From Sphagnum compactum (Eukaryota): a stretch of DNA of 64,000 bases. The position numbers and the translations under genes were made by a program. The stretch is taken from NCBI GenBank assembly GCA_965153455.1, contig OZ234494.1, positions 10,168,001 through 10,232,000 on the forward strand. The letters run 5' to 3'. Positions 7,104 through 41,619 of this stretch are shown here, in pieces; the stretch's first letter is position 1; each line of letters opens with the position of its first letter. The notes beneath the pieces were generated by a model. That model saw only the letters and a list, made by a program, of their open reading frames with translations. It made no database searches and was not told the DNA's origin.

Positions 7104-7115
7104 GCTCTGATACCA
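7104..7115 (-). promoter_or_regulatory. Primer-binding site complementary to initiator tRNA-Met
   Basis: Minus strand reads TGGTATCAGAGC directly after the 5' LTR, the canonical plant tRNA-iMet PBS. Confidence 0.95.
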
Positions 7116-7429
7116 TGTTAACAAATAGGAGATCTACTCAAGTGCAAACATAAAAAATTTATTGAAAAGAAACTATAACACGATGCTCACAACACAAAAC
7201 ACAACATCAAGAACTCCTCAAGGTTCTTGTCACAAGAAATACACAAACTTGTGTAATGAAGAAAAAAGAGCCAAACCATCAACACCAAGGTATTTAACTA
7301 CAAAACCACACCACAAATAACCAAACTAAAATAAGTAAAGAAAGTAGTTCAACCTTGTGAAAGTAACCTAGTTACTTTCTTACTCTAGTAACTAAAGAAA
7401 CCTAACTAGTTAAGCTTGAATTCTCAACA
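7116..7429 (-). repeat. 5' LTR of the copia element
   Basis: Direct repeat of 1299-1612; immediately followed on the minus strand by the PBS. Confidence 0.97.
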
Positions 7430-13501: not shown

Positions 13502-14165
13502 AGTGCAGAGCTTCAAACCCTAATTGTGAAGCTGATGATGCCAAGGAGCTTGGGCTATGTTCTTTTGCTTTCCAGCTTGTTTGTTTGTTACAAAGCCTGG
13601 TCACACTAGGGCAAGTGCAGAGCGTCAAACCCTAATTTGTGAAGCTGCTTATGGTAGGGAGCTTGGGCTCTCTTGCTTTTGCTTTCCAGCTTTGTTTCTT
13701 TGTTAAAGCCCGAGGTACACTAAGGCTAGTTCAGAACTTCAAATCCTAATTGCAAAGCTGCTGATGCCAGGAAGCTTTGACTCTTATGTTTTTGCTTTCC
13801 AGTTTTGTTTTGTTTGCTGCAAAGCCTAGAGGACACTAGGGCTAGTTCAGAGCTTCAAACCCTAATTTGTGAAGCTGATGATGGTCAGGAGCTTTGGCTC
13901 TTTTCTTTTTGCTTTCCAGCTTTGTTTGTTTGTTGCAAAGCATAGGGGGGGCTAGTTCAGAGTTCCAAACTGTAATTTCTGAAACTGATGATGGTAGGGA
14001 GCTTTGGCTCTTTTCTTTTAGCTTTCCAGCTCTGTTTGTCTGTTACAAAGCTTGGGGTACACTAGGGTAAGTACAGAGCTTCAAACCTTAATTTCTGAAG
14101 CTGATGATGGAAGGGAGCTTTGGCTCTATGTAAATTTGCTTTCCAGTTTTGTTTATTCAAGCAGG
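13502..14165 (+). repeat. Tandem array of about 6 units of about 115 bp with telo-boxes
   Basis: Unit: cactagggctagttcagagcttcAAACCCTAAtttgtgaagctgatgatgg...gctttccag...caaagc. Confidence 0.9.
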
Positions 14166-14471
14166 AAAGCATCATCATCGTCATCATCAAATCTCAGGAT
14201 CAAAGGTTCAAATGCCATCCTTTGCAAGATCATTTTAGTACAAGGTTGTTTGCAATTGTGGTGAAAGTCACCAAACTATCCTTTTTCCTTATGTGTTTCA
14301 CTAGCAAACTAATTCTGGGCACCATTTTGCAAGAAAGCAAAAAAACAAACAGTAATCCTCTAGCAAAGATCCCAGCAGCAGCACAAACACTAATCCTCTA
14401 GCAAAGATCCCAGCAGCAGCAGCAACAGTAGAGAGGTATACATACTCAGGCTTCCTACAGGATTTTGGTTA

Positions 14472-15338
14472 ATGACGAATGCCACGGTTTTCGACGCTAA
14501 AGCATGGGAATGGAACAAGGACTCGCTGACGATCATGGAGATGCAGGCGGCTGAACTCCAGGCGCTCTGTACACGCTATAACCTCAAGCCTGCCAAGACC
14601 GGCAAGGCAGTCGCTGCAGCAGCCATCGTCAACCATCTCATGGTCCTTAGGGCCGATGTGGTAACGAAACAGGATGTGCACAATGCTATTGAGGTCACTA
14701 TGGAGCAGGTTGCGGAAAACATTCTGGCTCCAGCAATGGAAGCTAAGATTGTGACCGTTACTGGCCAAGTCGAAATGCTGCAAAATAAAGTAGATGAGAT
14801 GGCTAAGAGCTTTGATACCATGCAGGACAGTGGGGAGAAGTGGAAGGAGGTCGTGGGCAGGAAGGTTGACAAGGTTGCCAACAAGGTGGACCGGGCAACG
14901 GATGCTGACCTGGTCAAGGCCAGGGAGGCAAACATCCGGGTCACCGGGTTGACCATGAACAAGGGGGAAACCTCAAAACAACTTATGGAGTTGGTGCAGA
15001 CGGAGCTGCTCGACAGGTTGAAGGTTGCTGACCGTGTGCAGGTGCAGAAGGTGCACCGGCAGATGCCATCGGGGTGACTGGATAAGGCCACTGACAAGGC
15101 ACCAGCAACCATCATCACGCTGGCATTGATACACGACAAGCTCACGGTGCTGCGCGCTCGCAAAGGCCTGCAGGGCACTCAGCTTGGGCTCGACGAGGAC
15201 CTGATTCCTGCTCAGCAGGTCCAGAAACGAGCCGCTTGGGTCACCTTCAAGGAGGCCAAAGAGGCTGGCGAACGGGTCTACTGGCGTGGGGCTGATCTCT
15301 ACATCAACCACAAAGTCATAAACTCTCCTACTGCATAG
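14472..15338 (+). pseudogene. LINE ORF1: SAP-like N-terminus, coiled coil, L1-type RRM/CTD; one internal TGA
   Basis: MQAAELQALCTRYNLKPAKTGKA (SAP-like); REANIRVTGL; LRARKGLQGTQLGLDEDL...AKEAGERVYWRGADLYIN; in-frame TGA at 15075-15077. Confidence 0.8.
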
Positions 15339-15358: not shown

Positions 15359-18300
15359 TTGCGCGTGTGCTTGTGGAACATCCATGGGGCCGCTATCACA
15401 AAGCTAGAAACACATGAACATCTGCTTGACCTATTTCAACATGTTGACGTTGTTGCTTTGACAGAAACACATCACTTCCTGAGCGATACATTCCCGGTCT
15501 TACCGGGGTTCTGCTGTTTTGATGTTGCCAGGCCTGTGACTCCACAAGGTGTCGTTCGAAAGCACAGTGGAGGCATTGCGGTACTAGTTAGGGAAACATG
15601 GGCAAATAGTACTGCTGTTTGGAAGACTGCAAGGGATGGGACTAGGATTTGGCTGCGCTTGGGCAATGCTTTCCAAAGGCCTTTGTTCCTATGCATAGTA
15701 TATGCTGCTCCAGCTCGCCATATGCGGACAGCAGCCTGTTTGAACACATATGCCAAGAGGTTGGAGAAGCCATGAACTTAGGCGTTGTGCTTCTTGCTGG
15801 GGATTTCAATGCAAGGACAAGCACAAACATTGATTTCATTGATTGTAGTCAACTAGCAAATGTGCTGCTGGTGCCACAAGCCATTGAGGACACCCTGCCC
15901 AACGATATGCTGGAGCACTAGAACTGTGACACTGTCACGGCTGGCTGGCATCGTGAGTTCCTGGATCTCTGCAGAACTACTGGGCTGTTCGTCCTCAATG
16001 GCCGCACACCAGGAGACATATCAGGGGAGTACACATGCCTATCCAATAAAGGTTTTAGCACTGTGGACTATTTTCTTACAATAGCTGACCAATTAGAGGG
16101 TGTCAAATGCTTAGAAGTTAACTGCGATGAAAAGTACTCAAGTCACAAAGATGCACACTCTGATCATAGACCATTGGTACTTACAATCACACAGCAGTGG
16201 CAACCCCCTCCTGTTCAGCAAAAGGCAATCAAACACCTACCACGTTTCAAATATGACACTGCCAAAGCAGCCGAGTTTAACAAGAGTGTACAGCATAACA
16301 TCGGTGTCTGGGCAAGCCTAGATGTACTTGATGCATCTGACGAACAAACAACAGTCATCTGTTACAACAATGCATCACACAATCTGCAGAAGAAGTGTTT
16401 GGAAATAGACAAGTGGCCTTAGGAAAAGCAATAAAGCACAGCCACAAACCCTGGTTTGACACAGAATGTCGCCAGACCAAAAGCCAGTTTGCTAAATTGT
16501 CACATGCGCACCCAGATAGGCAGGTCAGACTTAAGCAAATGAAACAGTTGTACAAAAGGAAAAAACGTGCTTATGATGTGCTCAAGGCTAAACAACTATG
16601 TGGTTTAGCGAAGGCGAATCCTGCAGCATTCTGGAAGCGGTACCGCAAGCGCACTGAGGGTGTCAATGGCATCACCAGTGAAGCGCTCAGGGATGGCTTC
16701 CAGCAACTGCTCCAGCCTCCGGCGGCATCAACCACAGCAGGAGCTGTGACAGGTGCCGTTATTCAAGCCCAGTGGGTCTCCTTTCCACCCAATGGTATTG
16801 ATTGCGAACAGTTGAATGTTGACATCACACTAGTTGAAGTACAACAAGCGTTCAAAAAGCTAAAACGACACAAAGCTGCAGGCATTGATGGCATCAAACT
16901 AGAGTTCCTTTTGGATGCGACTGATGCCCTGCACCAACCATTATTGATTGCTTTTAACAAAATTTTGCGCGAGGGCTATTGTGAATCACTCTCTGTTGGG
17001 ATCATACATGCATTGTACAAAGGGGGTGACTGTTGTCAGTTTGACAATTACAGGGGGATCACAGTAGGACCAGTTTTAGCCAAGGTGTTTGCAATGATTC
17101 TTGAGTCCCGCATCAGTCAATGGGCGGAGACCAATGATTTACGCGCAAAGGGACAGGCTGGTTTCAAAAAGGACTTTAGGACAACAGATAACTTGTTTAT
17201 TCTTCGCACTTTGACCGAACAAGCCAGATTTCAGCAAAAGAAGCTATACACTTGTTTTGTGGACTTCAAAAAAGCCTTTGATACAGTACCAAGGGACCTG
17301 TTGTGGCAAGTGCTGGAGGGACTTGGCATCAATGGGCGGATACTGGAGTGCTTGTGCTCCATGTCTCGTCAAGACCAGGCCTGCCTGCACCATCCAGAGG
17401 AGGGGCTCACGCCCACTTTCCTCTGTCGCATCGGAGTGAAGCAAGGATGCCCCCTCAGCTCACTCCTGTTTGGCCTCTTCATAGATGGCCTAGAAAAACG
17501 GCTGAATGCTTTAGAGGGTGACACACCACCAATGTTGGGACAGCTAGCTGTTCGTTTGCTTTTGTATGCAGACGACTTAGCTCTCATGTCACACACTCCT
17601 GCTGGATTGCAGAAGCAACTGGATGTCTTGCAAGCTTTTTGCTATGAGCGTCAGTTGACTATGAATGTCAAGAAAACCAAAGTTGTTGTGTTTGAAGCAC
17701 GCAAGTCTGTGTGTCAAGCTTTTTAGTATGAGGGCGAAGCTATAGAGCAACTAAACTCTTTCAAGTATCTAGGTGTTGAGCTGCACGGCACAAAAGGTAT
17801 GCAAGCGGCAATACAGCGGTTAGCAATGTCAGGGAAAAAGGCAGTTTTTGCATTGCGGCGCAGATGCGCAGAGTTGCGCATCTTTGACCCAGCATTACAA
17901 TGCCAGCTGTTTGATGCACCAGTCAAACCAGTGCTTAGCTATGGGTGTGAAGTATGGTCAGACCACATGGCATGCGAACAGTTAGAGGTGGTTCATCGGG
18001 CTTTTCTGAAGTTGTTGCTGGGGTCAGCACCACGACATCCAGCTACGTCGTGCTGGCAGAGTTTGGCAGGTTTCCCCTAGAAATATTTTGGTGGCAACAG
18101 ACCATGCGCTTTTTCTCACGTGTCAGTTCTGAGGTAGACTCAGATCGCATGCTCAGGCTAGCCTATGATGTACAGCTGCAGTTGCTTACAGCCAGGCGAA
18201 AAGTCTTACTCGGGAACCAGAATGCTGTGGGTAGAAAGAGCTGATTGCCTGCTTGCTGGCTAGCACAAGTAAATGAACGACTGTCGACGTACAATTTGTG

Positions 18301-18796
18301 CATCGATAGCGATCAGCTACCACCATGTGCTCGCCTCAAGCAATTGGCTGAAAGGCAATACATTGTACGCCATCAAGTGGCTGCAGTTGACTCCAGCAGG
18401 GTGAGAGCCTATCTGGGGTTGAATAGCTCAGCACAGTATGGGTACAAAGAATACCTCTCCAAGGTAGACAATGCATAGCTTAGGAGAAGCTTGGCACGTT
18501 TTCGTTGTGCGAATCACAAGTTGCAGATTGAGCTAGGAAGGCAAGTCAAGCCAGTGAAGGTGCCGATGCAGCAGCGTTACTGCAAATTATGCAACTTGGG
18601 TGCGGTTGAGGATGAGGACCACTTCTTGTTGGTTTGCCCTGCCTATCAAAGTGTTCGAGAGAGGTTTAGAGGTTCATTGCCACTAACTGCCATCACACCT
18701 TTGGCTGAATTGCTGAGCTGTCAGCAGCAAGGCATCCTTGCTAGATTCTTAGTGCAATGTCAGACGGTTAGATCTGAATTGCTTCATCAGTCTTAA
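15359..18796 (+). pseudogene. LINE ORF2: AP endonuclease, reverse transcriptase, C-terminal zinc finger; several stops and frameshifts
   Basis: APE: WNIHG, LTETH, SGGIAVLV, GDFNAR, VDYFL, SDHRPL. RT: NYRGIT, QAGF, FVDFKKAFD, GVKQGCPLS, YADD, FKYLG. C-terminus: LARFRCANHKLQIELGR...CKLCNLGAVEDEDHFLLVCPAY. Stops at 15919, 17724, 18242 and 18476; frameshifts near 15712, 16360 and 18020. Confidence 0.95.
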
Positions 18797-21700
18797 CGTC
18801 AATTGGGTTCTGGCCCGGGTGCTGTTTGGCCCACTTAATGATGCTAAATTGTAAGTAAGTAAGTAAGTGTCTACTAGTGTTAGCTGATTTTGGGATCTGG
18901 TCCGGATCTGGATGCAATGCCTGCTTTGGATGCTCTTCACACTCAGGTACTGCATTTCCCAACCATGAAACAACTCGTCGTACAAAGCTGAATAAGGTCA
19001 CTCCAACCCAGGTTCTGCCCTGGAGACCCAAAACTAAAACAAACTGAGCACTTGCACCAGAACCAGATCTTTCAACCAGGCCTTGCTGGAACCTAAACCT
19101 GGCTGCAAACCTCTTTTGCCCATGTTCCAGTTTTCTAGGCAAACAAGTATTGGAGGATTCTTATACAGGCAAGTGAACTTTTGGAAAAAAGGTCCTTTTA
19201 AGTTGTACTTAGTTAGGCAACACAATTCCCAATTGGAAATACAACTTACCTATACAATCTTCAATTTTGGGATGTGTGTTGATAGCTGGAGCCTGGAACC
19301 CGTTCGTTCTCCAAAGTACACCTGATTCAGAATTTGGTTTGAAGAGGAGCAAGACGTTAAAATTGTGAGGAATTGTCTCAGAACTTGAGGGGGGAGGTTC
19401 TATCAAATTAAAAAAATCTAGCTGGAACCAGAGCAATTGTAAGTTATATGAAATTGAAAAGCTACCCAGAACTGGAACCTACGGTTTTCTTCAATACTCG
19501 AAACCAATAAATGTTAATTATGCATACCTACAAATAAAAAACCAAAATGGAAAGAGAATGATCACAGGGTCACTTTCATTTTTTAGCGAATGGCATGCAG
19601 AAAGAAAAGAAAAAAGTATAACTGAGTCACCAGGAAATAAAATTTATAATTAGTTTAAATGAAAATAAGATACTCAAAATCTATTATGAGAACATAGTTA
19701 AAATATTCTTTTTTTAATAAAATACCAAAAGATACCCCTTCATCTCAAGTGTTTGATAAACTATAGAAAGAGTCCCCCTTGCAAGAGAATTGCAGCTTTT
19801 TATTTTGAAATTGGATGGTGCACAAGGTTGAGAATGAACAAGGTTTACAGGTCGGTAGATCATCTACCAAGTTACCTACCTCTCTAGTCTGGGAGGAACC
19901 CTACATTTTTGTATGTAAGTCCCTGTTAATTATACACTTTGGACTGTTTTGAATCATTGGGGGTTTTTGTGTTTGCCTTCAAAAGACTCTTTCATTAGCT
20001 GTAACACTTGTCAGTGAACACTTGTGAAGAGCACCCTGTTTTGGATTTGGTGTGTAGCACTTTTAGGACTGAAACCTTAATCCCCACACTAGGCTACTAG
20101 GCCACTAGTTCCATGTTCTCATGCAATTGGACACTTGCGCCTAATTGAACCAATGTCCTCTAGGAGGTCTTCTGGTTGGCTAATGTGATGAGTGTTAGGT
20201 AAGATGATGGTTGTTCATGTTTACAATATTGAGCTCTAATTAGGACCACATATGCAAGATCTGGTGTTTGGAAGGCAATGCAATCTATGTGTTGTTTCCA
20301 ATACAGTTTTTTCACTCGTCCGATCTTAAATAATTATAGAACAGATCTATCCATATTGGGTATTTAGGCTTTCATGAGTATTTTCCACATTCATTATTAC
20401 TTACATATCCCAAGTCCCACCCATAAACTTGAAAAAAGTGAGAGGTCACTTAAAATAAAGTAAGTGGATCGAATTGAATAATCTTATCAGCGAACCAAAG
20501 TGACAGATTATACCTAGCAGATCAATCAATCAATCTAGTCCGTAGTAGGATCTAATGTGTGCATTGATTTTTGCTAGCCACTGGTGCACCACACCCTATT
20601 GAAATATAGGATCCCAAAACAATTTTTTGGAATCAAACCGACAAGCTTTTACTTTTCTACATCCAAAACATGGTATAGAGTGCTTGGGGGTGGACCTGAT
20701 TTTAGAGCTTGTCCACCCACAGCCCCTACTCCAGCCTAGTAAAGTGTTTATCACATCCAACATAGAATGCTAATTGTTTCCCAAATGTCACCCATAAACA
20801 TAAAAAGTAGACAGTATAAGTCAAGAGACTATTTAATGTCACCACCTGGGCCAATTATTACAGCCAGCCAATCAAAGCAGTCATGTATTTGTAATGGGCC
20901 TTGAGGAGATCATGATGGTATGCTTTGCAAATGTACAGGAGCAGAATATTTAAACCATTTACACGCTTTTCGAAGTCTGCACTCTGTGCCAAATATACAG
21001 GGCATTTTATTGCTGCCTGTGCACCTTCTCTTGCAAAGGTAAATCTGGTTTAATTTTCATTTTACAGTTTCTTTCTTTTGCAGGGCTGACAAACATAAAA
21101 GTCCTCTTGGCCTGTTGAATGTGAGAACATCGTTACCAAAACATTCTTCTGATAAATCGAGAGAGTCCACCAGGGTCGTCAAGCAAATCCCAAGAATCGA
21201 GGGAACAAAGGTGAAGGGTACTGGGGATTTATTAGCCTAAAGGCTAATACTTGCAAGGATGGATGTGCTACATTCTCCCACTACATGGTTAAGGCGCTTG
21301 AATGCTGCTTGCATTCCTTGTTCTCTCAGTGCATTTTTCAGCAGCTGAAGAAAGCCAAATAAATGCAAATTGTTGTGGTTATACTGTGGGGTGCCTACAA
21401 CAGCCTGGTAGATTGATAGGGAGAGCTCTGAGTGACCTCCATGAACAAGAGAGCATCTTATTTTGTAGAGAAAGAGAAGTCATTGGCACTAGAAACTGGT
21501 AGAGAAAGTTAGGGCTTGAATGAAATTTTTTCTCTAAAGAAGAATAGAGAAAGAAGAAACAAATTAAAGGTCTTTCAAGAGTCCTTGTGCTTCGAGTCTC
21601 TGCTTCCAATTGTAACAATTTTGAATCCAACGTGCAAGTTGAGGAATGGGTTGACTTCAAAACTGTGCTAGCTGTGAACTTTACAAGGCTTGTGCACATA

Positions 21701-24231
21701 GGCTCTTTCAGAAGTGTAGTTCAGAGGACATAGTGATAACATCCAATTACCTAGGTTGAAGCATTAGGATATGTCTTGGTTAGTCATGAAGGAAGCCTCA
21801 AGGTGAGAGAAGTCTTCAGACCTCACATGTTATTCTATTCACACCCTCTGTACTACTCCCTTTGTATGCACAAAATTTGTCTGTGCATTGGTTTCCTTGT
21901 GGTACTTCTTACTTTCACATGTACACCCAGACTGTTGTATTTGGACTTTCCACCTTTTGGATCTGAAGGACACAAGGTTATAATTTTTTATTTTTTGGTA
22001 ACAAGTTGTTGAATAGAAATAATAACCCATACAATTCTCTTTTGCTATTTTCTAGCCAAAAATAATTCTCCAGAGACATGAAAGAGAATTATAGTGGTAG
22101 TAATGACTTAACATTGGTTTTTACTGAGTTGACATAGGCATCCTCATCATGAAAGTTAAGATTTATGTGGTGCAAAAATGAGAAGAAACAAAATTTGTTC
22201 AATGTCTTTAGATGCAAACTTGGAAAACTCTGTTCCACAAGGCTCATTTTCACACATTGAAGTAAGTAAGTGGGGATGCCTCTAACTACTTTTCAACATT
22301 CCATCTATGTTGTAGACAAAAAGTCTCAGCCAAAAATTTCATTCTTTAACTTGAGTTGGTGTGAATTCAAAGCTCCAAGATGATGTACAGTTGCTTACAC
22401 TTGTTTGGTCCCCTCTCCTATCTAGGGGCATTCTCACTTGCCAAAAATGCTCAAAAGGGAATTGGTTGCGTGGTAAATTTTATTTTAACCCTTGACCTTT
22501 CTACACCCATTTAAACTCCAATTGAAGTTTTAACTAGAAGTTGAGGCCAATCCCTTCATCCATGAATGAGATCACATATAACCCATTAGACTAAAATTTA
22601 TAGATTTAGAATTCTTTGTTAGAAATTTCAGCCAAAATTAAGTAAGGGTTGATGAATAGAAAAGCTAGATTGTTCTCATATGTAATTGATCAACTTGGTG
22701 CTACTCAAAGCTTGTCATGCCCATATGCATGGTTACATACATGATGGCCGGTTACGGGCATGCCAATCATGCCTTTTAGGGTTAATGTACGTTCTTAGGT
22801 TACTGTATGTTATTAGGTGTTTTAGGGTTATGGCTTGTTTAGGGTTTCAGCTTGTTAACGGTTGTATAAGAGGCCAAGCTCTTCCCTTCTCTTGTTAGTT
22901 TTTCTAGATTTCCTTTGTCAAGGAGAGTTTCCTCCATAGTCAGACTGGATTTCTAAATGTTCATGGCAGCTATTACACGGCCACCATTTACATACACTAT
23001 GTTTTCTTTCCTTCTTTTCAATTTAATTCTAGAAAAACTGCTCTCTGTCACTTAATGTTGAAAACGGCAGATTTTTCTTGGCTTTGAGTTTCTTGGGTTT
23101 ATTTTGTTTGTTGGTTTCTTGTGTTCTTGAGTTGCTGCTACTTCTTCTTCTGCTACAGAATCCAGTTCTACTGGTTCTAGAGGAGAAAGCCACAGGTGTA
23201 ATAAGCCCCTGGGTACCACTACCCAAAATCCTCACTTGGGCAAGAGCTGCCATTGCTTCGAGATTAGAAGAAAAGTCGAGGAGGCGTTGGAGAAGCGATG
23301 AGCGCGCACGCATGCTGCAGCACAAGAAGAGAAGACAACACTCTCTTAGTGGGGGACTAATCTGCAGCAACAAATCAGGTCCTTCTCCTCCTACTACAAT
23401 TGCAGCCGCTTACTGTTGAGTGAATAAGCTTGGGAATTTGTTGAAGTTGGACTCTTGCATTGTTACTTGTGGGAGAGCTTGATTTGCTGCTGTTGTCGCA
23501 GCCACGACAACAACAAGGATGTCTTGATGGATGCAGCGCCGAGGCCGGTATGTGGGATCAATTCTTCATTCAGAAAATTTCTCTCGTCAATCTACTCTTC
23601 TTGCTCACATCTGCTGTGGAACATCATGATCATGATCTTCTTTTAGCAAATGCCTTCCCTCTTCAAGTTACTTTGTGGTTGCTACGATCCCTCCCGTCCA
23701 ACGTGGTGGTCCGAACCCAAAAAGCTCTCGTGGGTGTGGGTTGTTGTTGGTAGAAAACTCTAAATCTATAGTGGGTGGTTAGGGTGAACTGTTTGTCGAT
23801 TCTTCAGCTCCTCACTACTAGACTAGACATCGTTCGCTCACTCCAAAGAAGCTGCCAGCTTTCCTTGTTCTTCCTTGGTAAATTTGTTGTTGTCTTGTTT
23901 TGTTCTCCTCTGGCTTGTTTTGGTAGTAGTAGCTGGTGACGACGTTTTGTTGGAAGAGGCGGAGGAAGCCTTGAAAACTCTCGAAGACTACAGGGCCAAG
24001 TGTAGCATCAAACAAATAGAAGGAAAAATATATATATATATATCTTCTGCATGATAGGCTGTAGCGCTCCCGGGCGATCTACAGCGCAGCATTCGTCATG
24101 TCACCGTTCGCCATCGTTGCAAAACTCCTGGGTGATTTGCAGTGCCGCATCGCAGCTCGCCATCGCTGTAGAGCTCTTGGGCGATCTGCAATGCCGTGTC
24201 CGTAGCGCCGTCCGTTGTGTTGCCGTCGCCA

Positions 24232-24340
24232 ATGTCCATCCACGGATGTCCGTCCACGGACTTTTGTCCATAGACTTCCGTCCACGGACATCCGTCCATG
24301 GACTTCCATCCATCGACTTTTGTCCATCGACGTCCGTTGA
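24232..24340 (+). repeat. GC-rich tandem array of about 15-bp units inside the gypsy-type element
   Basis: Repeated (t/c)gtccacggac(t/a)t(t/c) units, preceded by about 3 copies of ctcctgggcgatctgca at 24060-24200. Confidence 0.85.
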
Positions 24341-24438
24341 CGAATCTGCGCAGTTGGATAATGGAGAACCCAATACACCAGGTTCTTCAAACACACTTTC
24401 CAACTCCATTCCATATGCTTGCAACTACCCTTTCGTAA

Positions 24439-27405
24439 TGGGGAACCAGCTCACCAAGAAGGAGAGAGACCAGGTCAGAGACTTGCGAATTAAGTATGAA
24501 CATGTGTTTGCATTCTCGATGAAAGACTTAGGTAGGTGTAAGACCATGTAGTTCTCTATAGACCTTACAGATGAAACACCCATCTATTGGAAGAGGCATG
24601 GGTTGAGCAAGCATAAGTGGGAACTGGTAGATGAAAGATGTAAAAAGCTCCATGAGGCTAGTCTCATTTAACCATCAAGTTCTGATTTTGCAGCCGCTAC
24701 AATAATGTCAGCAAAGAAGGATTCAGCTAGATTATGGACTAAGAAAAGGATGTGCGGGGATTATAGGCCTTTGAACTTGGTTACATCTCAGGACAGGTAC
24801 CCCATGCCCATCCCTGAAGAACTGTTTGATAACATTGGAGAGTTAAACATCTTCACAATTGTGGATCTGAGGTAAGGTTTCAACCAGATTGTGCTCGCTA
24901 CGAAGGATCGCAAGAAAACGACATTCCATGGAAGCAACAAGTTGTGGAAATGGCTTGTGATGCCTTTTGGATTGAAGAATGCACATGTCTTCTTTCAGCC
25001 AGTCATGGACCAGGTTTTTGAAGGGGCAGATTTCTTGAAGTGTTACATAGATGACGTCTTAATGCATAGCAAGGGAATCCTGCAACATTTGGCTCATCTT
25101 GAAGAGTTATTCAAGAGGCTCCACGAAGTCAATATGAAGATCCATCTTAAAAAGTGTGAGTTTGTTGTCACTTCAGTAGTCTACCTTGGCCACAAAATTT
25201 TGCCAAATGGTATTATGGCTCATTGGGCCAAAGTAGTAGCCATTTTGGAGATGCCCAATCCTACTGATGTTCACACTTTGAGGAGCTTCATCAGACTATT
25301 TAATTATTACAAGATTTATGTCCAAGCTTTCAGTACTATTGTTCATCCTCTCTATGCATTGTTAAAGAAGGATGTTGCTTGGACATGGAGTGAAGAGGCT
25401 TAGGAAGCTTTCAACACACGCAAGGAAAAGCTTTCAGAGTTCCCCATTCTGAGAAGACCTGATTTTAGCAAGGTCTTCATTCTACACACTAACTGGAGTG
25501 CTCTTGGTATTGGTGTTATTCTTGGCCAACTTGATGAGGAAGGCAAGGAATATGTTATCGCCTATGCATCCCAAAGCAACAACAAGGCTGAGAGCAACTA
25601 TTCTTCATACGAGGAGGAATGTCTTGCTGTTGTATGGGCTGTCATACATATATTTATGGCACCAAGTTCACTTTGTATACCGACCACCAGCCTATCAAGT
25701 CGTTAATGACCAATAATAAGCTTATTAGTAAGTTAGCTTGTTGGGCGCTTATACTTCAGGAGTATGAGTTCAAGGTTATTCACCGACCTGGTATTACACA
25801 TCAGAACACGGATACCATGTCGCGGAGACCCTTCACTACCTTTGAAGATTTGTCAAAAGCCAGGTAAGACTTCAACCAGATTCCAATAGTACATGTATCT
25901 TACGCATCTAGTTATCTTGCACTACTACAATGTAACCTGGTTGAGCATCCCACTGTGGATATATGGGAGGACTTGGACACTTTGAGGTTTCTTTAGCCTG
26001 GGGAATACCCTCCCCAAGTTACATCAAGTCATCGGGATCACATACAACAATGGTTCAAACGCTACTCATGGAGAGACAATCACCTCATGCGATGCTTACC
26101 AGAAGGCGATAAAGTGGTTCCTCCACCACATGAACGGCTTGGTCTTATTCAGAAGGTACACTTGGAGCTTGGACATTTTAGAGTTAAGCGTACTTATAGC
26201 CTTCTTGCTCCTCATTACCCTTGGAGAGGTATGTATGCTCAAGTCCGAGATGTCATTGCTAGGTGTGAACAATGTGATAGAGTGAGAACTTCCTTTTCCT
26301 CTCGACAATTCACGCTTTCTCCAATCCCTATTCAGGGCATGTTTTATTGCTAGTCATGTGATTTAGCTAGAGAGTTACCATAGACCTCTAGGGGTAATGT
26401 CTACATCATGATTATGATTGAGCATTTTTCAAAGTGGGTCGAGCTTGTTGCGCTGCCGGACAAGTAATCACACAGCACTAACTAGGCTTTCTTACAACAG
26501 GTCCTAAGTAGGTTTGGGGCTTGTGCTAAGTGCCTTACTGATCAAGGATCAGAATTCAGAGGAAAATTCCAAGACCTACTTGATCATGCTCTCATTAACC
26601 ATCGTTGGACTTCAAGGGATCATCCCCAAGTGATGGCCTTGTAGAGAGGTTGGTTTAGACATGCAAGAAAGGATTTCGGAAGATTTGCTTCACTGGGAAC
26701 AAAGAGGATTGGGACCTACTTCTACCTTACATCGCCATGGGTTACAGGATGTCCAAGCACGCTTCTTTGTCTCATTTCGTTCCTTACTTTTTACTTTTTG
26801 GGAGACATCCCATTCCACCCTCTTCCATTGTTGTTCAAATGGACCAGGTTGTGGACTTGGACTCCCCAGCCACTTGGGCTAAGGTCATCGCAGAGAATGC
26901 TACTCTATTAAGGAGGGTTATGCCCATGGCCATGGAAAACTTGTCCATTGCACAACATCGAGACACCTTACGATATGCACACACAAAAGGTGGCAGTTAC
27001 AAACCTAAGGTGAGACAATTTGATGTTGGTGACTTTGTGTATTTCCAACGGCAACCTAATGATACTTTAGACATTTCTTCTGGTCGTACTATCTTGAGGA
27101 TTAAGACGATCAGGCCTTCAGGTGTGTTGGAGTTGCAAAGAGCCGACGGACGCACAATTCGGGATCACTCCAAAAACGGTGCACCTTGCCGCTTGCTGAA
27201 CTTAGATCCTACCATCATCACGTCAATTTGGATTCCTCCACTTGGCTATCCACGTCAGGTATGTCAAAGGACAGATGATGCTGATCAGATGCTGCTTTGC
27301 GATAATTATAATGGTGGATACCATCTATTTTGCTTCAAGCCGGAGCTCACTCAAGTTCCTGCTGGCATTTGGTACTGGTCATCATGTTTTCCTGCAGCAC
27401 CTTGA
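24439..27405 (+). pseudogene. Degenerate gypsy pol: RT, RNase H, integrase (HHCC, DDE) and C-terminal PHD finger
   Basis: RMCGDYRPLN, DRYPMP, VMPFGLKNA, YIDD (25044-25055), KKCEF, YLGH; EECLAVVWA, TDHQP, WALILQEYEF; H..LGHF...CEQC; TDQGSEF; QVCQRTDDADQMLLCDNYNGGYHLFCFKPELTQVPAGIWYWSSC; many stops and frameshifts. Confidence 0.93.
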
Positions 27406-27679
27406 TTTCTACTCAAACCATGTCACGCTTTTCTCGGCTCAAGTTTGGGGGGGGATACATGAGAATTTCATCTCAGGCTCCTCTTGTGCATTGTATATAT
27501 ATGTGCGCGCATCTCTTTTTGGTTGATTAGTTTCTACCTTTGACTAGTTTTAGTCTTTTTGTTCAGTAGAGTTTGCTATGGATTTACACCCTTATGACAC
27601 CAAATGTCACAACACTACACGTCACGACAAGCTGCATTCAAAATTTCATTGATAAAAAATGGGTTTTAGACTTGACACT

Positions 27680-28935
27680 CGTGCATGGGTGCGAATGAAT
27701 TAATAGGAGCCATTAGCGTCCTCTTAGGTAATTGATTTTGGGGAATATTTTTGAAATATTTTTGAAAAAAAAATTCAAAGTTTTTTAAAAAATGTTTTTT
27801 TTTTGGTATTATTTTGTGAAGGTTTGTGTTAAAAGTTTGTCAAAAATATGTCATTTAAAAAGTTTTTGAAATTCATTTGGGTACAAGTATAAAGATAGGA
27901 GCCAAAAACCATGTCGAATAGTGGTGAAAACTATGAATTTTTTTACATATGTTTTTTGTCTTACTTTTAAAAGTTATCTTAATCATTCCAAGTTGTGCTA
28001 AATGACTATATGAAAGTTGAGGAATTCAAATTCAAAATTCATTAAATTAAATTTTGAGTTTTGATTTTTAAAATGGATGTTTGAACTTGAATAAGTGTTG
28101 TGTCAAATGTGGTTAATTTTACAAAAGACCAGGTAAAGGACTATTGTAATAATATAATTTTGATGGTAAAAAAATTTAAATGATAGTAGCCTACTACCCA
28201 AGTTCAAAAAACATTCACAATTTAAAAGATATAAAAATATAAAAATATAAAAATTCAAAGTATTTTTCAAAATTAAAAATTTTCAAGAGTCGTTTACTAC
28301 ATGTAAATGGGGTGTAATGTGCATGACATACAAAACAAAGTTGTAGTTTATAATATTAAAAACAAAAACCTAAAATAGTTAGCATAATTTGGTATGATTC
28401 AAAATTATGATAAAATTTGAAAATGAAATGCCGAATCTGGTAGAATTACACACTTTGAAAAATTCATATGTATTCAACGATGATTAACACAAAACATGTG
28501 ATCTATTGCGGTAACTATATGTATTTTTAATAACAAGTTGCAAAAGATTTCATTCAAAATTTTTTCCATATGAAAAAATGAAAAAGGACTAAAAAGGACT
28601 TACAATCCTTTTGTAAAGTAATCCCATTGGCTCCTATCTATGTACTTGCACCCATTTATAAGTCCTTTTATTGCTTAAAAATAGTGGTTACAAATATTTA
28701 TACACTATTTTTGTATGAATATTCTTGTATGTATAAAGGTCTAAATGTTAATGAAATAATTTTATATTTTGAACATTTATAAAATAAGATATTAGATTTG
28801 ATAATGTGCAAAACTTTTAACTTATTTTCAAGTTACAATTAAAAAAAAATTGAGATAAAAAACACAAAATTAAATAATGGTTACGATTGCTTTTGGCTCC
28901 TATTTCCTATTAGGATGATTGCACTTGCATATGCA
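27680..28935. mobile_element. AT-rich non-autonomous DNA transposon remnant with inverted subterminal motifs
   Basis: ATAGGAGCCA at about 27703 and 27895, inverted at about 28628 and 28894; gggtacaagtataaagataggagcca pairs with tggctcctatctatgtacttgcaccc. Confidence 0.5.
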
Positions 28936-29780
28936 TCAAATTAACACCTGCAATGATCAACTTAAATACCAAAGAAAAAATAATTCAGGCTAAAATCAAG
29001 TAAGATTGAAGTTTTGTAATTTCTAGAATTTTAATGAGAGTATCTTTGAAAATGGGCAGTACCTTGAAAGGGAAGTTAATAGGATCCCAACATTGGAACC
29101 GCTGTTGGCTAGTTATTGCATTTTTCCATAATTGGCCAGGTAGTTTATTTTTTATTTTTGGAACACATAGGTTATCATATAAGATTTTCAAATATTTAAA
29201 CCCATCAATTATCAATTTCCATGGAAAAGTAATGCACTGATTATTAATTAATTGTTATTTTTTTGGGTAATAGTCATCAATTACGCATAAGGGTTGATTC
29301 TCAAATACTCACCTTGAGAATTGGTTGTGATCTAGGTAGGGTAGGTTATGATTATATTTTTTCTACTTTTTTTTATGGTAAACATGTTTAGGGTTTTAAG
29401 ATTGATAATTTATTTAGATGGAATTCCAATAATTTGGGTAAGGTACTGAAATTTGAAACTTTAACATCTGACCCATTGAGGTCTTTCAAGTTCTTGGAAT
29501 GATATGCAGCAGGCAGGTTGGTTATTTATTGATTTTTCCAAAAAATTAAATAATTGATTGTGAGGCTATCAATACCTGGGTTGATAATTCTGTTTTTTCA
29601 ATAAGTGGTTAACATTGGTTTGAACTCCTAAGTCAGCTCATATATGGGGTTTTCCAAGAGCTTTGAGATGGTCTATTGTTTGGCATTGCTATGTGGGTAC
29701 TGAGGTTCTGATAAAATAAGTGCAGGCCTTGAGTTTCAATTTGTGAACTAGGTGCTCACTCAAGAGTGCATCAATGGGAC

Positions 29781-30010
29781 ACAAGAAGCTTTTTTGGGAT
29801 TCCCAATAAGGAAGAGAGTGAAAATCTTTGATAACTTAAAGGTGAATTAACAAAACATAGGCAAAGCTCTCCACAGAAATCATGGACCCAATATTTCAAT
29901 GTTTTATTCTAATTTTCCCATTGTGAAACAGAGAAATCATTGTACTTTCCCATTGTCAAACAAACCATTTCATGTTTGCATAGGGAGAATTCAAGTTTTT
30001 CTTGATGGTC
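29781..30010 (+). repeat. Dispersed repeat copy A, inverted partner of 36255-36483
   Basis: Shared blocks such as ttcccattgtcaaacaaaccatttcatgtt and aattcaagtttttcttgatggtc. Confidence 0.8.
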
Positions 30011-31721
30011 CCAAAAGGTTAAACAACAAGTTTCCATACAACTCCCTGTGTGCAATATCGCAAAGCTCTCAGTTATCCCTGTTAGAAACCCCTCTGAGAA
30101 CCAACGTCAAAGGGAATATTCATTTCCCACAATAGATGCTTTTCAAATAAGAAAAACTTATTAACTTCCCCCTTTGACATTAGTTCACGGTACCCCTCTA
30201 ATGGCATAATTGAACTTTCCCTGTCAGGCTCCTTGGGAATGGTGCAAAACTCTCTGTGTCTCACAATTCCTTGTCAGTTGCATTTCAAGTCCATTCTTGA
30301 AAATAAAGTTAGACAATTTTCTCACAAGGGAATTCAAGAGCTCCCTGTAATACAATCAGTGGCTTTTTTTCAATTTTCTGATGTTGCATCATTTGTAGCA
30401 TCCCAAGAAAGATTTAGCATTAAATAACAACATCACAGGTAGAAGAGTATTTCTTTTAAAATGTTACTGTTGTTTGGCCACCTATAGGAGAATGCCTTCT
30501 ATACGAATGAACCCAGTTCAAAACCCTTGTTTTTTTTATGAATGTTTTCAAAAGTTTCAAAAATAAAAACCTTTGTAGAGCTCCTACCCCCAATTTATTA
30601 TTGATTGCGAAATTACTATGCATACAGCCAAGTAAAGTAAAATGAAAAAAAATTTGAATACCACACATTGAAAATTCCCACAAACACCAGATCTCGCTTA
30701 TCAGATGTTTAGCGGTTATGTAAAATGCCTGAATATTTGTCAATTTGCAGATTATGGGAATAAGTGGACATTGGGTTAATAAAATAACCTTCCAAGTTCC
30801 AAGTGCAAAACGACAGTTGACACCCTTCAAAAGTTGGAAACCTCTAGATTTGTGGTCGTTTCGTGTTTGGCAGTTTCCAGCTTGATATTAAACAATGAAC
30901 AGTGACTGCACTTTGTTGTAAGAGTACACAACCAAAAGGAAAAAATCCAAAAGGATAACAGAAACCACCTACTAATAAGTCTTAGCTCAATTGATGTACC
31001 TCTCATTTTTTAGGGTCTTTAGTCTTTGGCTGTTTGCCTATTGCTACTTTAAGGTAGTACAAGTGTAGTAGTTGGCATTCTTGAAACCTGCCACTTAAAA
31101 GAAAAACACACAGCATTCCCCCTGCTGTATTTCCAGATACCCTACTGCCTTGGCAGCTTTGACACTACTAATATTATTTTCAGAAATGTTGAAATTTGCA
31201 CAATTTGTTTTTATCAAATAAACTTTGTTTTTGAAGAAAAATATTGAATCTTCTGGTCTATTTCTTGAAATGAAAATTTCAAAATTATTAATTATTCAAC
31301 AGACATGTGCTGCCAAGGTACTACAGTACCCATTGCCAACACAAGGGATTGAGGAAAGTCCTAGATACTCGCTTTGACTCTTAGGGAGTCCCTCATGATG
31401 AAAATCATAAAGACAGGAGCAGACACAAAGAAGAGGACTTACTTCTACAACTCCTGTCTTCAACATGAAATAATGACTATCATAGGAGTAGTAAATTGTA
31501 CATTACCAAGACATGAAACTTTCCACAAATGCTCATAGGGCCCGGCCCCTCCCTGGGTGAACCAGCACCTACTCTGGGACATTCCTCTTCTTGTGTGAGG
31601 CCTCTTATTAGGGTCTATATTGAACCTGGGAAATGTTAAATTTGGAGTCACAGACCCTGATTTTAATGTAAGGATGAGATATTTATAATTTTTAGAAATA
31701 ACCCCAAGAAATGGGAATTTT

Positions 31722-32070
31722 TACCAGTGTTGGCTTGGTATCAACTTTAGAACATACCAGCCTGGTCCTGGTATGAAATTCATAAAAGAAAATACAGTAC
31801 CAGGATGCATGAAGCATGATCATTAGCCTCTGGTGTTGGGTCCTTTTAAAAACTTTTCTACCGTCCTGGTCCTGACCTCCTGTCCAAGACTGACTTTTGG
31901 CCCGTTTGAGGGGATATATATATAGCTGATATTCAAAGTAACATAACAATGGTAACAATGGTATAAGCCTGATGTTACCACAGGTCCATACTAGGCTGGT
32001 ACTGGTCCAAGGCTCCTATTGCCTAAGGTCGTACTCATACCAGGTTAGTAGGGTCCTCAATACCAGTAGT
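31722..32070. repeat. MITE-like repeat rich in ATACCAG/CTGGTAT motifs
   Basis: Multiple ataccag/ctggtat motifs in both orientations. Confidence 0.45.
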
Positions 32071-33474
32071 GTTGATAACAGGCACAGCCCAACATACCAA
32101 AGCAACACTAGTAAAAGTACTAATTGTAGGGGCTATTTCACCAAAGGAGTGAACCCAATAATATTAGCCCGTTACATTTATAAAATTTCGCTGGTGATCC
32201 CCTATTATGACAAATCTTGAGCCAAAACAAACTCCTCATTTAACAACAGAACAACAGCTGGACCCCCAATATACATACACAAATTTCTCACCTCCCGCAA
32301 AGAGAACACAGCAGATCAGACCTGTGAGAATTTGGAAAAAAATGCAAGGCAACAAAGGGGAGGGTGGTAAGGGAAAGTGGGTGGGCGGAAAGTTCATGGT
32401 GCTATCGAGGTTTGGGGGGCGGCGGGGGGCGGGGGGGGGGAAAAAGAGCCTGGCTAACGGCTCGACCGACCAGCGGACAGATTCAGCGGCAGCTCGCACA
32501 CTTGGTTCAATCTAATCACGTCTGTATAGCAACCAAACTCTCAACGACAATATCTGGGTTCCAGCTAGCTGCAGCAGCTCCTCGCCCTGCAAGTTCCAAA
32601 ACAAAGAGCTTTCAAGGTTTTGTACTCTGCAACTTCCAGCTGATCAGAATTCCAAAATATCTTATAATTTTAAGCTTGTCTTACAAATTTCTTATCAGCT
32701 GATCATTTCTGCATTTTCAAGCTCTGGAGCTTAAACAATTTTAATATATATATCTAGTCGCTGCACTAGGCACGCATTCTAAGCTCTGGAGCTCCAAAAA
32801 TATTGAGAATGATGATCAGGAAGCTCATGATCCGAATATTATATGTACATCTCGCTAGCTGGTAGTTATAATATTATAGACCTCATCATTTGTGCTCTAT
32901 ATTTGTAGGAGTTATAAGCTGCTTAAGGTCGCAGATTGGATCTGATGATCAAGTTTTTGTTTTGAGAAGCAGCTGCTGCACGTTCCATATTGTGATCTAG
33001 TGTTTGAACTCATGTCCATGTCAAGGATGTTGGGTGCAGCAGGGGATTATGAAGAATATTATGTTGTTCAACAGATCTAAGTGATCTGCAGAGTTGACAG
33101 TGAAATCTGTAGTTGGGATTGCGTGCGCAATTAATTAGAGGGGTCTAGTATAGATGCAGTTTCAGTATAAGAGCGAGTTGCACTTGAGGGGGTTTGGTCT
33201 GACTTATAATGCGATTCAGGGAACACCAGGACTGCAAGAGAGAATAATCCAGGGTTCTTGTGAAAGTTTCAGCCGAGTCGAATTGTGCAGTCGCACGAAT
33301 TTTTATTGGAAATCAGCCTTAATTCGTACTGGAAGCTGCAGTGAAAAGCTTGAAGTTTTGCGATCATATAGGCCATTACTTCTTCCTCGTTCAAGTACTT
33401 CCGGTTTGAGCGCCCGCGCGGTGATCACAAGCAGCAATGAATGAAGACATCATGTGTGAACAGTACTAGAAAAG

Positions 33475-41574: not shown

Positions 41575-41619
41575 TCTCTCTCTCAGATGTCTCACATCTC
41601 TTTCTGTCAACTCTTTCTG

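Follow-up and report, generated by a model that had tools for sequence, protein, structure and literature searches.

Known elements related to the family

KnitGypsy-Dnmt3 of Klebsormidium nitens has been described as an element with a DIRS-type repeat structure and Gypsy domains (de Mendoza et al. 2018, PMC5890265). As far as that description extends, it is the closest known element to the retroelement family found in the window, the 64,000-nucleotide stretch of Sphagnum compactum DNA analyzed here. Both have a Gypsy-type pol, a polyprotein that includes a Dnmt3-like cytosine methylase, repeats in the order A-coding-B-A-B, and a streptophyte host. KnitGypsy-Dnmt3 is found in an alga, whereas the host of the window family is a land plant, and its nearest named relatives are from a liverwort and a moss. 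In addition, the methylase of the window family is located upstream of the reverse transcriptase (RT), unlike that of KnitGypsy-Dnmt3, and the window copy differs further in having no methylase, gag, protease, or A2-B2. In its available sections, the report on KnitGypsy-Dnmt3 makes no mention of termini, a 4-bp target-site duplication (TSD), a palindromic junction, a self-priming primer-binding site (PBS), or a PHD finger (PMC5890265). A partial K. nitens protein, P0004 (rve and PHD), which is not assigned to KnitGypsy-Dnmt3, was 46% identical to the integrase-PHD open reading frame (ORF) of the window.

Split direct repeats have also been described in the PAT-like, Toc, Ngaro, and VIPER groups of tyrosine-recombinase retrotransposons (PMC4157794, PMC8969392, PMC7192593). 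As described there, these groups share with the window family the order A1-internal-B1-A2-B2 and an internal joint with both termini side by side, and they have a tyrosine recombinase, no TSD, and, in DIRS/PAT, a Dam-like adenine methylase. In contrast, the window family has a DDE integrase (rve), 4-bp TSDs, and a C5 Dnmt3-like methylase, and no tyrosine recombinase (PF00589) appeared in the Pfam results of the window copy and its relatives. The family therefore has the split-repeat order of DIRS elements, with neither their recombinase nor their absence of TSDs.

Canonical Ty3/gypsy elements, above all the self-priming Tf1/sushi-Tcn1 group, resemble the family in the order gag-protease-RT-RNase H-integrase, TG..CA-type ends, a short duplication, and a polypurine-like tract (PMC6317226). 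In the Tf1/sushi-Tcn1 group, the PBS is complementary to the 5' end of the element's own transcript (PMC6317226), as may also be the case in the window family. A chromatin-reader module follows the integrase in both, a PHD finger in the window family and a chromodomain in the Tf1/sushi-Tcn1 group (PMC6317226). Canonical Ty3/gypsy elements are arranged as LTR-internal-LTR, whereas insertions of the window family end inside the block that reaches from the G run to the PBS (B + A). Ginger1 and Ginger2 are DNA transposons with a gypsy-like integrase, TGT...ACA ends, and a 4-bp duplication and without RT. The window family shares the first three features but has a full retroelement gene set, including RT and RNase H, and its repeats are regenerated in each element in each cycle.

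Ends and target-site duplications

By direct reading, the element occupies positions 22713-27629, with TGTCATG at 22713-22719 and CACGACA at 27623-27629, and is flanked by a duplication of the 4-bp kind found throughout the family:

22709..22712, no strand: left TSD copy, AGCT
27630..27633, no strand: right TSD copy, AGCT

We compared 81 loci, of which 62 belong to the same family (83-93% nucleotide identity to markers for A, B, or pol taken from the window). Among these members, 61 are short-read metagenome contigs, in which chimeric repeat assembly is possible at any single locus. TGTCATG was the start at the extrapolated boundary in 17 of the 21 related loci with a 5' end and lay 10 nt upstream of that boundary in L004, and ACA was the terminus at the extrapolated boundary in 32 of the 44 loci with a 3' end. 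Perfect 4-bp TSDs, each of a different sequence and flanking A1 to the last B, were found in 8 of the 14 elements with both ends (13 loci and the window): L008 TTTA, L019 ATAA, L024 AGAC, L029 ACCT, L030 CTTT, L046 AATG, L047 TTTT, and the window AGCT. Two further elements of the 14 matched at three of the four bases. The two insertion junctions of the window copy were each covered by contigs with 0 differences at single-copy depth. The ends and the duplication of the element are not due to chance. Direct reading and Pfam confirmed the ends, the AGCT flanks, and the gypsy RT-RNase H-integrase reported in the initial annotation, and the alignment of copies that it proposed showed that family members always carry two unlike ends with fresh 4-bp TSDs.

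Split direct repeats in the family

Two blocks at the ends of the window copy served as references for the related loci:

22713..23027, + strand: repeat A, the 5' 315 bp and the sole A of the window copy, alignable with both A copies (A1 and A2) of related loci
27455..27629, + strand: repeat B, the 3' 175 bp and the sole B of the window copy, ending in CACGACA, aligned to related loci

Fuller copies of about 9-10 kb were arranged as A1-leader-gag-protease-Dnmt3-like methylase-RT-RNase H-integrase-PHD-G run-B1-2 nt-A2-B2. This layout constitutes split direct repeats, two interleaved pairs of terminal repeats. The order pol-B-A-B was observed at 26 loci, one of which (L018) had an incomplete A2 and lacked B2, and pol-B alone, with a flank of at least 375 bp, at 19 loci. 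The joints of A-end with B-start and of B-end with A-start were both present in contigs of the window's species and of two relatives. The A-coding-B-A-B order with Gypsy domains of the KnitGypsy-Dnmt3 type is thus found in the family, and the window copy has the A...B form only. Where B1 meets A2, the sequence forms the palindrome ACA-GC-TGT, in which both termini are contained. A 2-nt spacer separated B1 and A2 in 16 of 20 loci (7 GC, 3 GT, 2 AC, 2 AT, 1 TA, and 1 unclear, L017); correction of alignment offsets gave AC for L019 and L029 and GC for L005. A2 and B2 abutted exactly in most copies, and in L015 the pol end and G run were located at the A2|B2 joint. We hold the identity and architecture of the family, as described, with high confidence.

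A direct repeat linking the two ends of the window copy was found neither by a repeat search of 18000-33000 nor by BLASTN of the element against the window or self-BLASTN of the whole window. Because the self-BLASTN recovered both 315-bp LTRs of a copia element unrelated to this one (1298-1612/7115-7429), a normal LTR pair of the gypsy element would have shown. When A and B of the window copy were aligned locally, the score was 20, against 18.7 +/- 2.6 in 300 shuffles, indicating no likeness. The earlier observation that the 3' block has no 5' counterpart therefore held in all these searches. Two identical LTRs, as in Ty3/gypsy elements, are lacking at the integrated ends, where A is unlike B and relatives show A-internal-B-A-B or A-internal-B; the short TSD and TG..CA ends of that group are present. 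B was found within 1.2 kb of the 5' A at 0 of 21 loci, and the B + A block was never intact on the 5' side. The proposal of an LTR-less family was thus right in that the element is not a normal LTR provirus, but the family is not LTR-less, since both blocks are repeated at the pol-B-A-B loci. The alternative of deletions in both LTRs does not fit, since the 5' end is complete and the 3' side lacks only the A2-B2 module.

Regeneration of the repeats within each element

A1-A2 identity was 0.881 within elements and 0.816 between elements, and the element's own A partner was the best match in 5 of 7 elements. In 22 elements, B1-B2 identity was 0.888 within and 0.858 between elements, and 0 of 20,000 permutations reached the within-element value. 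B1 copies and B2 copies did not cluster separately. Because A1/A2 and B1/B2 have their nearest relatives within the same element, the repeats are regenerated in each cycle by reverse transcription. This speaks against the LTR-less family suggested initially, as the repeats are renewed within each element in the manner of LTRs.

Promoter and candidate priming signals

Repeat A appears to act as a promoter-bearing, LTR-like block, judging from the following signals:

22865..22872, + strand: TATA box, TATAAGAG in the window and TATAAAAG in relatives, from an alignment of 19 copies
22897..22908, + strand: AGTTTTTCTAGA, putative self-primer at the presumed start of transcription, some 28 nt past the TATA box; its reverse complement recurs without mismatch at 23028-23039
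23028..23039, + strand: candidate self-priming-type PBS, TCTAGAAAAACT, directly after A, complement of 22897-22908
23040..24339, + strand: poorly conserved leader, ending at the internal deletion breakpoint (about 24334-24340)
27447..27454, + strand: G8 run, polypurine-tract-like, directly before B, by direct reading

The window has G at 22870, where all family contigs have A. The 12 nt directly after A are thus a perfect complement of the presumed transcript start, an arrangement that may correspond to the self-priming of Tf1/sushi-type elements. The predicted RNA fold paired both 12-mers (z = -3.96); no covariation was seen in the primer/PBS pair, both arms of which are nearly invariant. No tRNA-type PBS (TGG...) was found after the 5' block, so that the PBS described as missing is indeed absent in this form, but a self-priming-type candidate adjoins A. 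The G8 run noted before the 3' block was confirmed, and a run of at least 6 G residues directly preceded B in 31 of 42 loci. The promoter, the candidate PBS, and the G-run polypurine tract occupy the positions that an LTR element needs, contrary to the LTR-less reading. The leader contains 14-bp tandem repeats at 24221-24342, and the region 23725-24369, which includes the deletion breakpoint, is covered by a single-copy contig that shows 0 differences. In the one RNA run examined, no poly(A) RNA reads were found on A, pol, or B.

Coding content and decay of the window copy

Pfam identified RVT_1, RT_RNaseH_2/RT_RNaseH, Integrase_H2C2, and a C-terminal PHD finger in the window ORFs, in the gypsy-type order RT-RNase H-integrase. 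The pol remnant lies in three frames:

24438..25649, + strand: frame 1, start MGNQLT, RT and beginning of RNase H, 4 in-frame stops
25649..26641, + strand: frame 2, end of RNase H, integrase zinc finger (H2C2), and integrase core, 6 in-frame stops
26629..27405, + strand: frame 3, C-terminal part of integrase and PHD finger (27256-27387), 1 in-frame stop

Altogether, pol of the window copy carries 11 stops and 2 frameshifts, and 3 of the 8 zinc ligands seen in the PHD finger of P0001 are substituted. The copy is collinear with P0001 at 79-81% identity. An internal deletion of about 4.4-4.9 kb has removed gag, protease, and methylase, and no gag or protease was detected by Pfam in the 8 ORF pieces of the copy. 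Their absence, as first recorded, is correct for this copy but is not a family trait, because relatives carry both. L061 and L007 have a methylase (PF00145) and a protease upstream of RT; L061 also has a gag-asp_proteas match, and CCHC knuckles were read by eye in L007. Relatives contain rve (PF00665) and PHD as well. All 27 of the 27 PDB matches of the methylase piece were DNMT3A/B/C (E about 1e-4), and this piece was 32-34% identical to the methylase part of the PHD-integrase polyproteins P0032 and P0029. The Dnmt3-like C5 methylase typical of Gypsy-Dnmt3 elements is thus present in the coding region of relatives. These results indicate that the window element is probably a dead, nonautonomous, internally deleted copy of a plant Ty3/gypsy family with split direct repeats.

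Possible routes of replication

We tentatively favor a route through a circle and a palindrome, although we rate its chances as somewhat short of even. Transcription would begin at 22897-type sites in A1, and the RNA would prime itself at the PBS in the way of Tf1. With plus strands starting at the G run, reverse transcription would yield an LTR composed of B + 2 nt + A. In this model, the A2|B2 joint, which unites the last base before the PBS with the first base after the G run, would correspond to a 2-LTR circle junction. The integrase would ignore the outer cDNA ends and act on the ACA-GC-TGT palindrome inside this LTR, where two nicks would leave CA-3'OH ends recessed by a 2-nt overhang; insertion of these ends would generate the 4-bp duplication. 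If a circular or joined cDNA with two LTRs were opened at the palindrome, A-int-B-A-B would result; A-int-B, as in the window copy, would come from a form with one LTR or from a subsequent deletion between B1 and B2.

Integrase has been reported to cleave the palindromic LTR-LTR junctions of retroviral 2-LTR circles (PMC1905944, PMC1180852). As described, a palindrome of two viral DNA ends is cut internally, which is the chemistry required by the proposed mechanism. In these reports, the retroviral palindrome is the joint of outer LTR ends and at most a side route (PMC1180852, PMC1905944), whereas the palindrome of the family, known here from its sequence, sits inside the LTR equivalent and would be the main route. 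The mirror form A-B-A-int-B was found at 0 of the 21 loci with a 5' end, which counts against the circle route because it predicts this form as often as A-int-B-A-B. Terminal branches were 0.076 for A...B and 0.078 for B-A-B copies (p = 0.67); A...B copies are not older, which leans weakly against slow decay.

A directional mechanism of the DIRS/PAT/Ngaro type would account for the missing mirror forms. The B1-2 nt-A2 junction would be a stored template, and subgenomic RNA or cDNA would regain both termini by template switching; linear A1...B2 cDNA would be made directly, trimmed at CA and inserted by the integrase, and a circle would be unnecessary. A-internal-B-A-B is reported to be the commonest split-repeat order (PMC8969392, PMC4157794), and the internal complementary region of DIRS-1 is reported to be needed experimentally for full-length restoration (PMC7192593). 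The regeneration of both A and B within each element also agrees with this mechanism. However, B2 is never copied when minus-strand synthesis begins at the conserved PBS that follows A1, so that another primer site is needed, of which no sign was found, and the exact joint of PBS boundary and G-run boundary at A2|B2 has no obvious reason. We consider this mechanism unlikely.

In a truly LTR-less lineage, A...B would be the autonomous unit, its full-length RNA copied end to end and inserted by the integrase, with B-A-B copies as side products. A...B copies are common (19 loci versus 26), are no older than B-A-B copies, and have their own 4-bp TSDs (L024, L047, and the window). On the pol tree (38 tips, 4 duplicate loci dropped), however, the two forms were intermixed as at random (15 changes versus 13.0 +/- 1.6 in 2000 shuffles), indicating that A...B copies do not propagate as a lineage of their own. 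Both the TATA box and the putative start lie about 150-185 nt inside A, so that the RNA of an A...B copy would lack the first 184 nt of A, with no second A to restore them. The likeness of A1/A2 and B1/B2 within each element, moreover, shows that B-A-B copies were made by replication, and an LTR-less lineage is very unlikely.

Cut-and-paste movement of the Ginger type, in which the integrase would act at the inverted ends of 7 bp and an abutted-ends intermediate would have left the B-2 nt-A joint as a relic, is extremely unlikely. The TGT...ACA ends, the 4-bp duplication, and the 2-nt spaced palindrome of both ends fit this mode, and the abutted-ends intermediate (circle or dimer) would resemble that of some bacterial insertion sequences. 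If the element moved only as DNA, A1 and A2 would have drifted apart ever since the layout came into being, but they, like B1 and B2, are nearest relatives in each element. Conservation extends to the promoter, the PBS, the G run, and a complete set of gag, protease, RT, and RNase H, and read depth in the window's species was about two orders higher on the element than on its flanks, which fits copy-and-paste. The Ginger link raised initially has not been borne out, and DNA-only transposition is contradicted by the likeness of the repeats within elements. Lastly, a chance AGCT match between unrelated ends is refuted: a single 4-bp match would arise by chance in 1 of 256 cases, and an inverted match at 6 of 7 positions says little by itself, but the same two ends recur at dozens of loci with different flanks, together with 7 further perfect TSDs of different sequences.

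All genomic copies examined were broken, so the family may be extinct in this host. The split-repeat layout that these copies preserve has been reported once before for a gypsy element, KnitGypsy-Dnmt3 of a green alga.

Structure and decay of the window copy

The initial annotation had described a gypsy-type element bounded by TGTCATG and CACGACA, flanked by AGCT, with a G8 run and RT-RNaseH-integrase content. The ends, flanks and G8 run were confirmed by direct reading of the window. Pfam recovered the RVT_1, RT_RNaseH_2/RT_RNaseH and Integrase_H2C2 domains of the element, together with a PHD finger that had gone unremarked. The parts of the element are as follows.

22709-22712, left target-site duplication AGCT (read directly)
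22713-27629, element, starting TGTCATG and ending CACGACA (read directly)
22713-23027, repeat A, 315 bp
27256-27387, C-terminal PHD finger of the integrase ORF (Pfam)
27447-27454, G8 run (read directly)
27455-27629, repeat B, 175 bp
27630-27633, right target-site duplication AGCT (read directly)

As initially reported for this copy, no direct repeat joining its ends was found by repeat search, by BLASTN against the window, or by self-comparison of the whole window. The alignment score of A to B, used to look for a hidden R-like likeness, was not above that of shuffles. As an internal control, the self-comparison picked up both LTRs of a separate copia element in the window; a normal LTR pair at the element would therefore have shown. 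The other features of the window are listed below.

1298-7429, minus strand, apparently intact Ty1/copia element, 315-bp LTRs 99.4% alike, 5-bp duplication ATAAA on both sides
13502-14157, tandem-repeat array, period about 112 bp (self-comparison)
27685-28655, unit of about 970 bp with 28-nt inverted repeats (79-89% complementary), starting 52 bp past the right duplication of the element
41600-42075, tandem-repeat array, period about 163 bp (self-comparison)
52379-52789, tandem-repeat array, period about 70 bp (self-comparison)

A single open frame of 1291 aa in the copia element encodes gag, integrase and RVT_2 domains. The unit at 27685-28655 may be a small TIR element, and a stretch 65% similar to it lies in one related locus, L056.

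The window pol is collinear with P0001, an unbroken 929-aa RT-to-PHD relative, at 79-81% identity, but it is split over three frames and has 11 in-frame stops. Against its relatives, the window copy aligns over A and about 100 bp more, then patchily over a variable leader that includes 14-bp tandem repeats, and the alignment jumps at about 24334-24340 to a point just upstream of pol. About 4.4 to 4.9 kb with gag, protease and methylase is absent from it. Thus, gag and protease are indeed missing here, as first noted, but their absence is an internal deletion and not a family trait, since relatives carry a protease and CCHC knuckles. In the window's species, the deletion breakpoint is bridged with zero differences by a single-copy contig, thereby indicating that the deleted form did not spread. 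The window copy is an inert fossil.

Relatives and coding content of the family

A protein search with the integrase-PHD ORF matched 41 proteins, many of them RT-RNaseH-integrase-PHD proteins of about 1000 to 1150 aa. Among relatives with a name, a liverwort protein (74%) and a moss protein (64%) were nearest. Klebsormidium and a volvocine alga supplied others, and a C5 DNA methylase domain was also present in some of the proteins. A likeness of an SRL...GGG peptide between the N termini of the algal relatives and the G-run region of the window was set aside as a possible coincidence.

Metagenome contigs were scanned with an alignment of 12 relatives' proteins, which yielded 80 loci, and the scan of viral contigs gave a single, unrelated locus at 35% identity. 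Of the 81 loci, 62 shared 83-93% nucleotide identity with markers taken from the window; they are copies of the window's family, from the same plant or a close relative of it. L061, the relative with least damage, runs in one frame from about 5253 onward with single stops, and upstream of its RT Pfam placed both an aspartic protease of gag type and a C5 cytosine methylase. Two CCHC knuckles were identified by eye in another locus, L007. The methylase piece gave 27 PDB matches, every one to DNMT3A/B/C. No tyrosine recombinase appeared in any Pfam result for the window ORFs, the protein relatives or the related loci. In two more distant PHD-integrase polyproteins (P0029 and P0032), a homologous methylase (32-34% identical) is placed after RNase H and before integrase, whereas it lies upstream of RT in the window's family (L007 and L061); the position of the module thus differs among related elements.

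Both blocks are repeated in fuller relatives

Downstream of pol, 26 loci (23 distinct) showed the order pol-B-A-B, with duplicates recognized by identical flanks (L003=L007, L008=L031 and L064=L065). One of the 26, L018, has a partial A2 and lacks B2. Another 19 loci (18 distinct) resembled the window, with pol-B followed by unrelated flank. On the 5' side, which was present in 21 loci, a single A lies 5.5 to 8 kb upstream of pol, and no B was found within 1.2 kb of the 5' A in any of these. The full form is therefore A1-internal-B1-A2-B2, and the LTR-less family suggested by the initial annotation is contradicted by the 26 loci in which both blocks recur. Joints of A end to B start, and of B end to A start with a few letters between, were also present in contigs from the window's species and two relatives, so the layout is not an artefact of metagenome assemblies alone.

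The mirror form A-B-A-internal-B was sought and seen in 0 of the 21 loci with a 5' end, and the canonical B-A-internal-B-A was likewise not found among loci with that end. The flanks of the related loci held no solo A-B unit, although these loci were picked by pol and are a weak sample for it. L075 carries one stray inverted A. Insertions were observed within A2 of L049 (about 820 bp, 9494-10314) and between A2 and B2 of L030 (about 890 bp, 13658-14546).

Ends, target duplications and junctions

The two unlike ends recur across copies. At the 5' side, 17 of 21 copies have TGTCATG at the extrapolated boundary, L004 has it 10 nt upstream, and the remainder comprise two TATCATG ends and one truncated end. 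At the 3' side, 32 of 44 copies have ACA at the expected place, two have ATA, and ten end earlier. Fourteen elements had both ends (13 loci and the window). Perfect and fresh 4-bp duplications, all different in sequence, flank eight of them, and another two match at three of the four bases; L004 and L060 showed no match, and the ends of L054 and L056 are damaged. In B-A-B copies (L008, L019, L029, L030 and L046), B2 lies inside the duplications, as does the only B of A...B copies (L024, L047 and the window).

The end of B holds two tandem copies of the 10-mer CGTCACGACA, 15 bp apart (27600-27629 in the window). About 15 bp are missing from 10 of the 44 last-B copies, most of which stop at the first 10-mer, and the same early stop occurs in 2 of 23 internal B1 copies. 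Matching duplications lie at the early-stop end in L024 and L029. An early-ending B could be due to alternative cleavage or slippage.

The B1-A2 joint reads CACGACA, 2 nt, TGTCATG, and with a GC spacer it is a perfect palindrome. Spacers given for 16 of 20 loci were GC (7), GT (3), AC (2), AT (2), TA (1) and unclear (1, L017); allowing for alignment offset, they were AC in L019 and L029 and GC in L005. The A2|B2 joint connects exactly the boundary of A on the side of the putative primer-binding site (PBS) to the boundary of B on the G-run side. In L015, this joint (10908-11041) additionally contains 88 bp from the end of pol, plus the spacer and the G run, the product expected if a plus strand had been primed further upstream than usual.

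Putative priming signals and regeneration of the repeats

In an alignment of 19 copies, A carries a TATA box, TATAAAAGG, followed about 28 nt later by a 12-mer, AGTTTTTCTAGA. The perfect reverse complement of this 12-mer, TCTAGAAAAACT, stands immediately after the last base of A1. In an RNA fold of 22897-23045, the two 12-mers paired, enclosing a loop with structure of its own (-34.5 kcal/mol, z -3.96). Such a putative primer and PBS would match the arrangement in self-priming Tf1/sushi-Tcn1 elements (PMC6317226) and would account for the lack of a tRNA-type PBS that had been noted initially. B is directly preceded by at least six G in 31 of 42 loci; in the others the run is interrupted. Thus, A stops at the start of the putative PBS, and the polypurine-like run directly adjoins the start of B.

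On a tree of 40 A copies, A1 and A2 from one element were sisters or nearest neighbours. Their mean identity was 0.881 within elements versus 0.816 between elements, and the own partner was the best match in five of seven cases. For B1 and B2, identity was 0.888 within versus 0.858 between (22 elements, with L003 dropped as a duplicate), and none of 20000 permutations reached the within value. B1 copies were no nearer to other B1 copies than to B2. The likeness of own partners indicates that each transposition, like that of LTR elements, makes both repeats anew from a single template. Movement as DNA alone is thereby ruled out.

Relationship of the two forms and state of the family

The pol tree comprised 42 rows, the window and 41 loci with both pol markers. 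The two forms were mixed on it, with 15 parsimony changes versus 13.0 +/- 1.6 in 2000 label shuffles (four duplicate loci dropped), indicating that A...B copies arise repeatedly and are not a lineage. Terminal branches were 0.076 for A...B and 0.078 for B-A-B (p = 0.67), showing no age difference. The equal lengths lean weakly against slow decay by recombination of B1 with B2 and towards formation at or near insertion.

All genomic copies examined were broken. In the window's species, depth over A, pol and B exceeded that of the flanks by about two orders, and in two relatives it was higher still; these depths are not copy numbers. No joint of 22712 to 27630, as expected of an empty site, was among the joints listed for data sets X1, X8 and X9, and the flanks were barely covered in two related species. 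In about 12% of a poly(A) RNA run from the window's species (X22), none of the reads matched A, pol or B at a likeness of 92%. Reads of this run matched 23156-23986 of the leader only partially, at 90-95%, and continued into unlike sequence; 168 of the 171 covered it with just part of their length, and the two halves of the region were matched on opposite strands. The leader seems to hold fragments resembling sequence expressed elsewhere, which is not evidence of expression of the element.

Proposed route of integration

The layout, the duplications, the signals and the remaking of the repeats within elements are demonstrated; the steps that follow are inferred from them. Transcription would begin at the A1 12-mer, with the minus strand self-primed at the PBS; strong-stop DNA would transfer to A2, and plus strands would be primed from the G run. 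With ordinary LTR replication, both ends would then carry an LTR made up of B, 2 nt and A. Because no integrated copy has this unit at both ends, integrase would have to act at the ACA-GC-TGT palindrome inside the LTR. If both strands were nicked 3' of the CA, the result would be exactly the recessed 3'-OH ends with 2-nt 5' overhangs that an integrase joins to its target. End-joined cDNA (a 2-LTR circle with the joint A2|B2) opened at the PBS-adjacent palindrome would yield A-internal-B-A-B, and a one-LTR circle would yield A-internal-B. Retroviral integrases are known to cleave palindromic LTR-LTR junctions (PMC1905944, PMC1180852). It is possible, though we hold it doubtful, that a gypsy lineage shifted its integrase sites from the outer LTR ends to this palindrome and integrated circular or end-joined cDNA, its proviruses being circular permutations of a normal provirus.

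The main rival is a directional, DIRS-like route in which the internal joint is used as template, as proposed for DIRS elements (PMC7192593). Random choice of palindrome in a 2-LTR circle predicts the mirror form equally often, and its count of 0 of 21 is the weak point of the circle route and speaks for the directional one.

Relation to known elements and significance

The order A1-internal-B1-A2-B2 is the "split direct repeat" order of PAT-like, Ngaro and other tyrosine-recombinase retrotransposons (PMC8969392, PMC4157794), and such repeats have been presented as a feature of tyrosine-recombinase elements (PMC4157794, PMC8969392, PMC7192593). Those elements share the layout and make no target duplication; unlike them, the window's family has a DDE integrase, TGT...ACA ends and 4-bp duplications.

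The kind of element is already known. KnitGypsy-Dnmt3, which pairs Gypsy protein domains with repeats laid out as in DIRS, was described in Klebsormidium nitens by de Mendoza et al. in 2018, who inferred acquisition in the K. nitens lineage (PMC5890265), and a 2026 preprint mentions "streptophytes (Gypsy-DNMT3)" in passing. The main-text passages on KnitGypsy-Dnmt3 in the former make no mention of ends, duplication, palindrome, PBS or PHD finger (PMC5890265). These are worked out here, and the land-plant member is new.

An LTR finder would take A1 and A2 as the LTRs, drop B2 outside the element, and miss A...B copies entirely. Gypsy-Dnmt3 elements, in print for K. nitens, now extend to land plants, which bears on the inferred acquisition in the K. 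nitens lineage. The repeat boundaries coincide with the putative PBS and the G run, which offers a testable reading of the two blocks as one LTR cut at an internal attachment site. If this reading is true, split direct repeats follow from the position of the attachment site, whether the enzyme is a tyrosine recombinase or a DDE integrase, and the repeats of DIRS, PAT and Ngaro could be read likewise.
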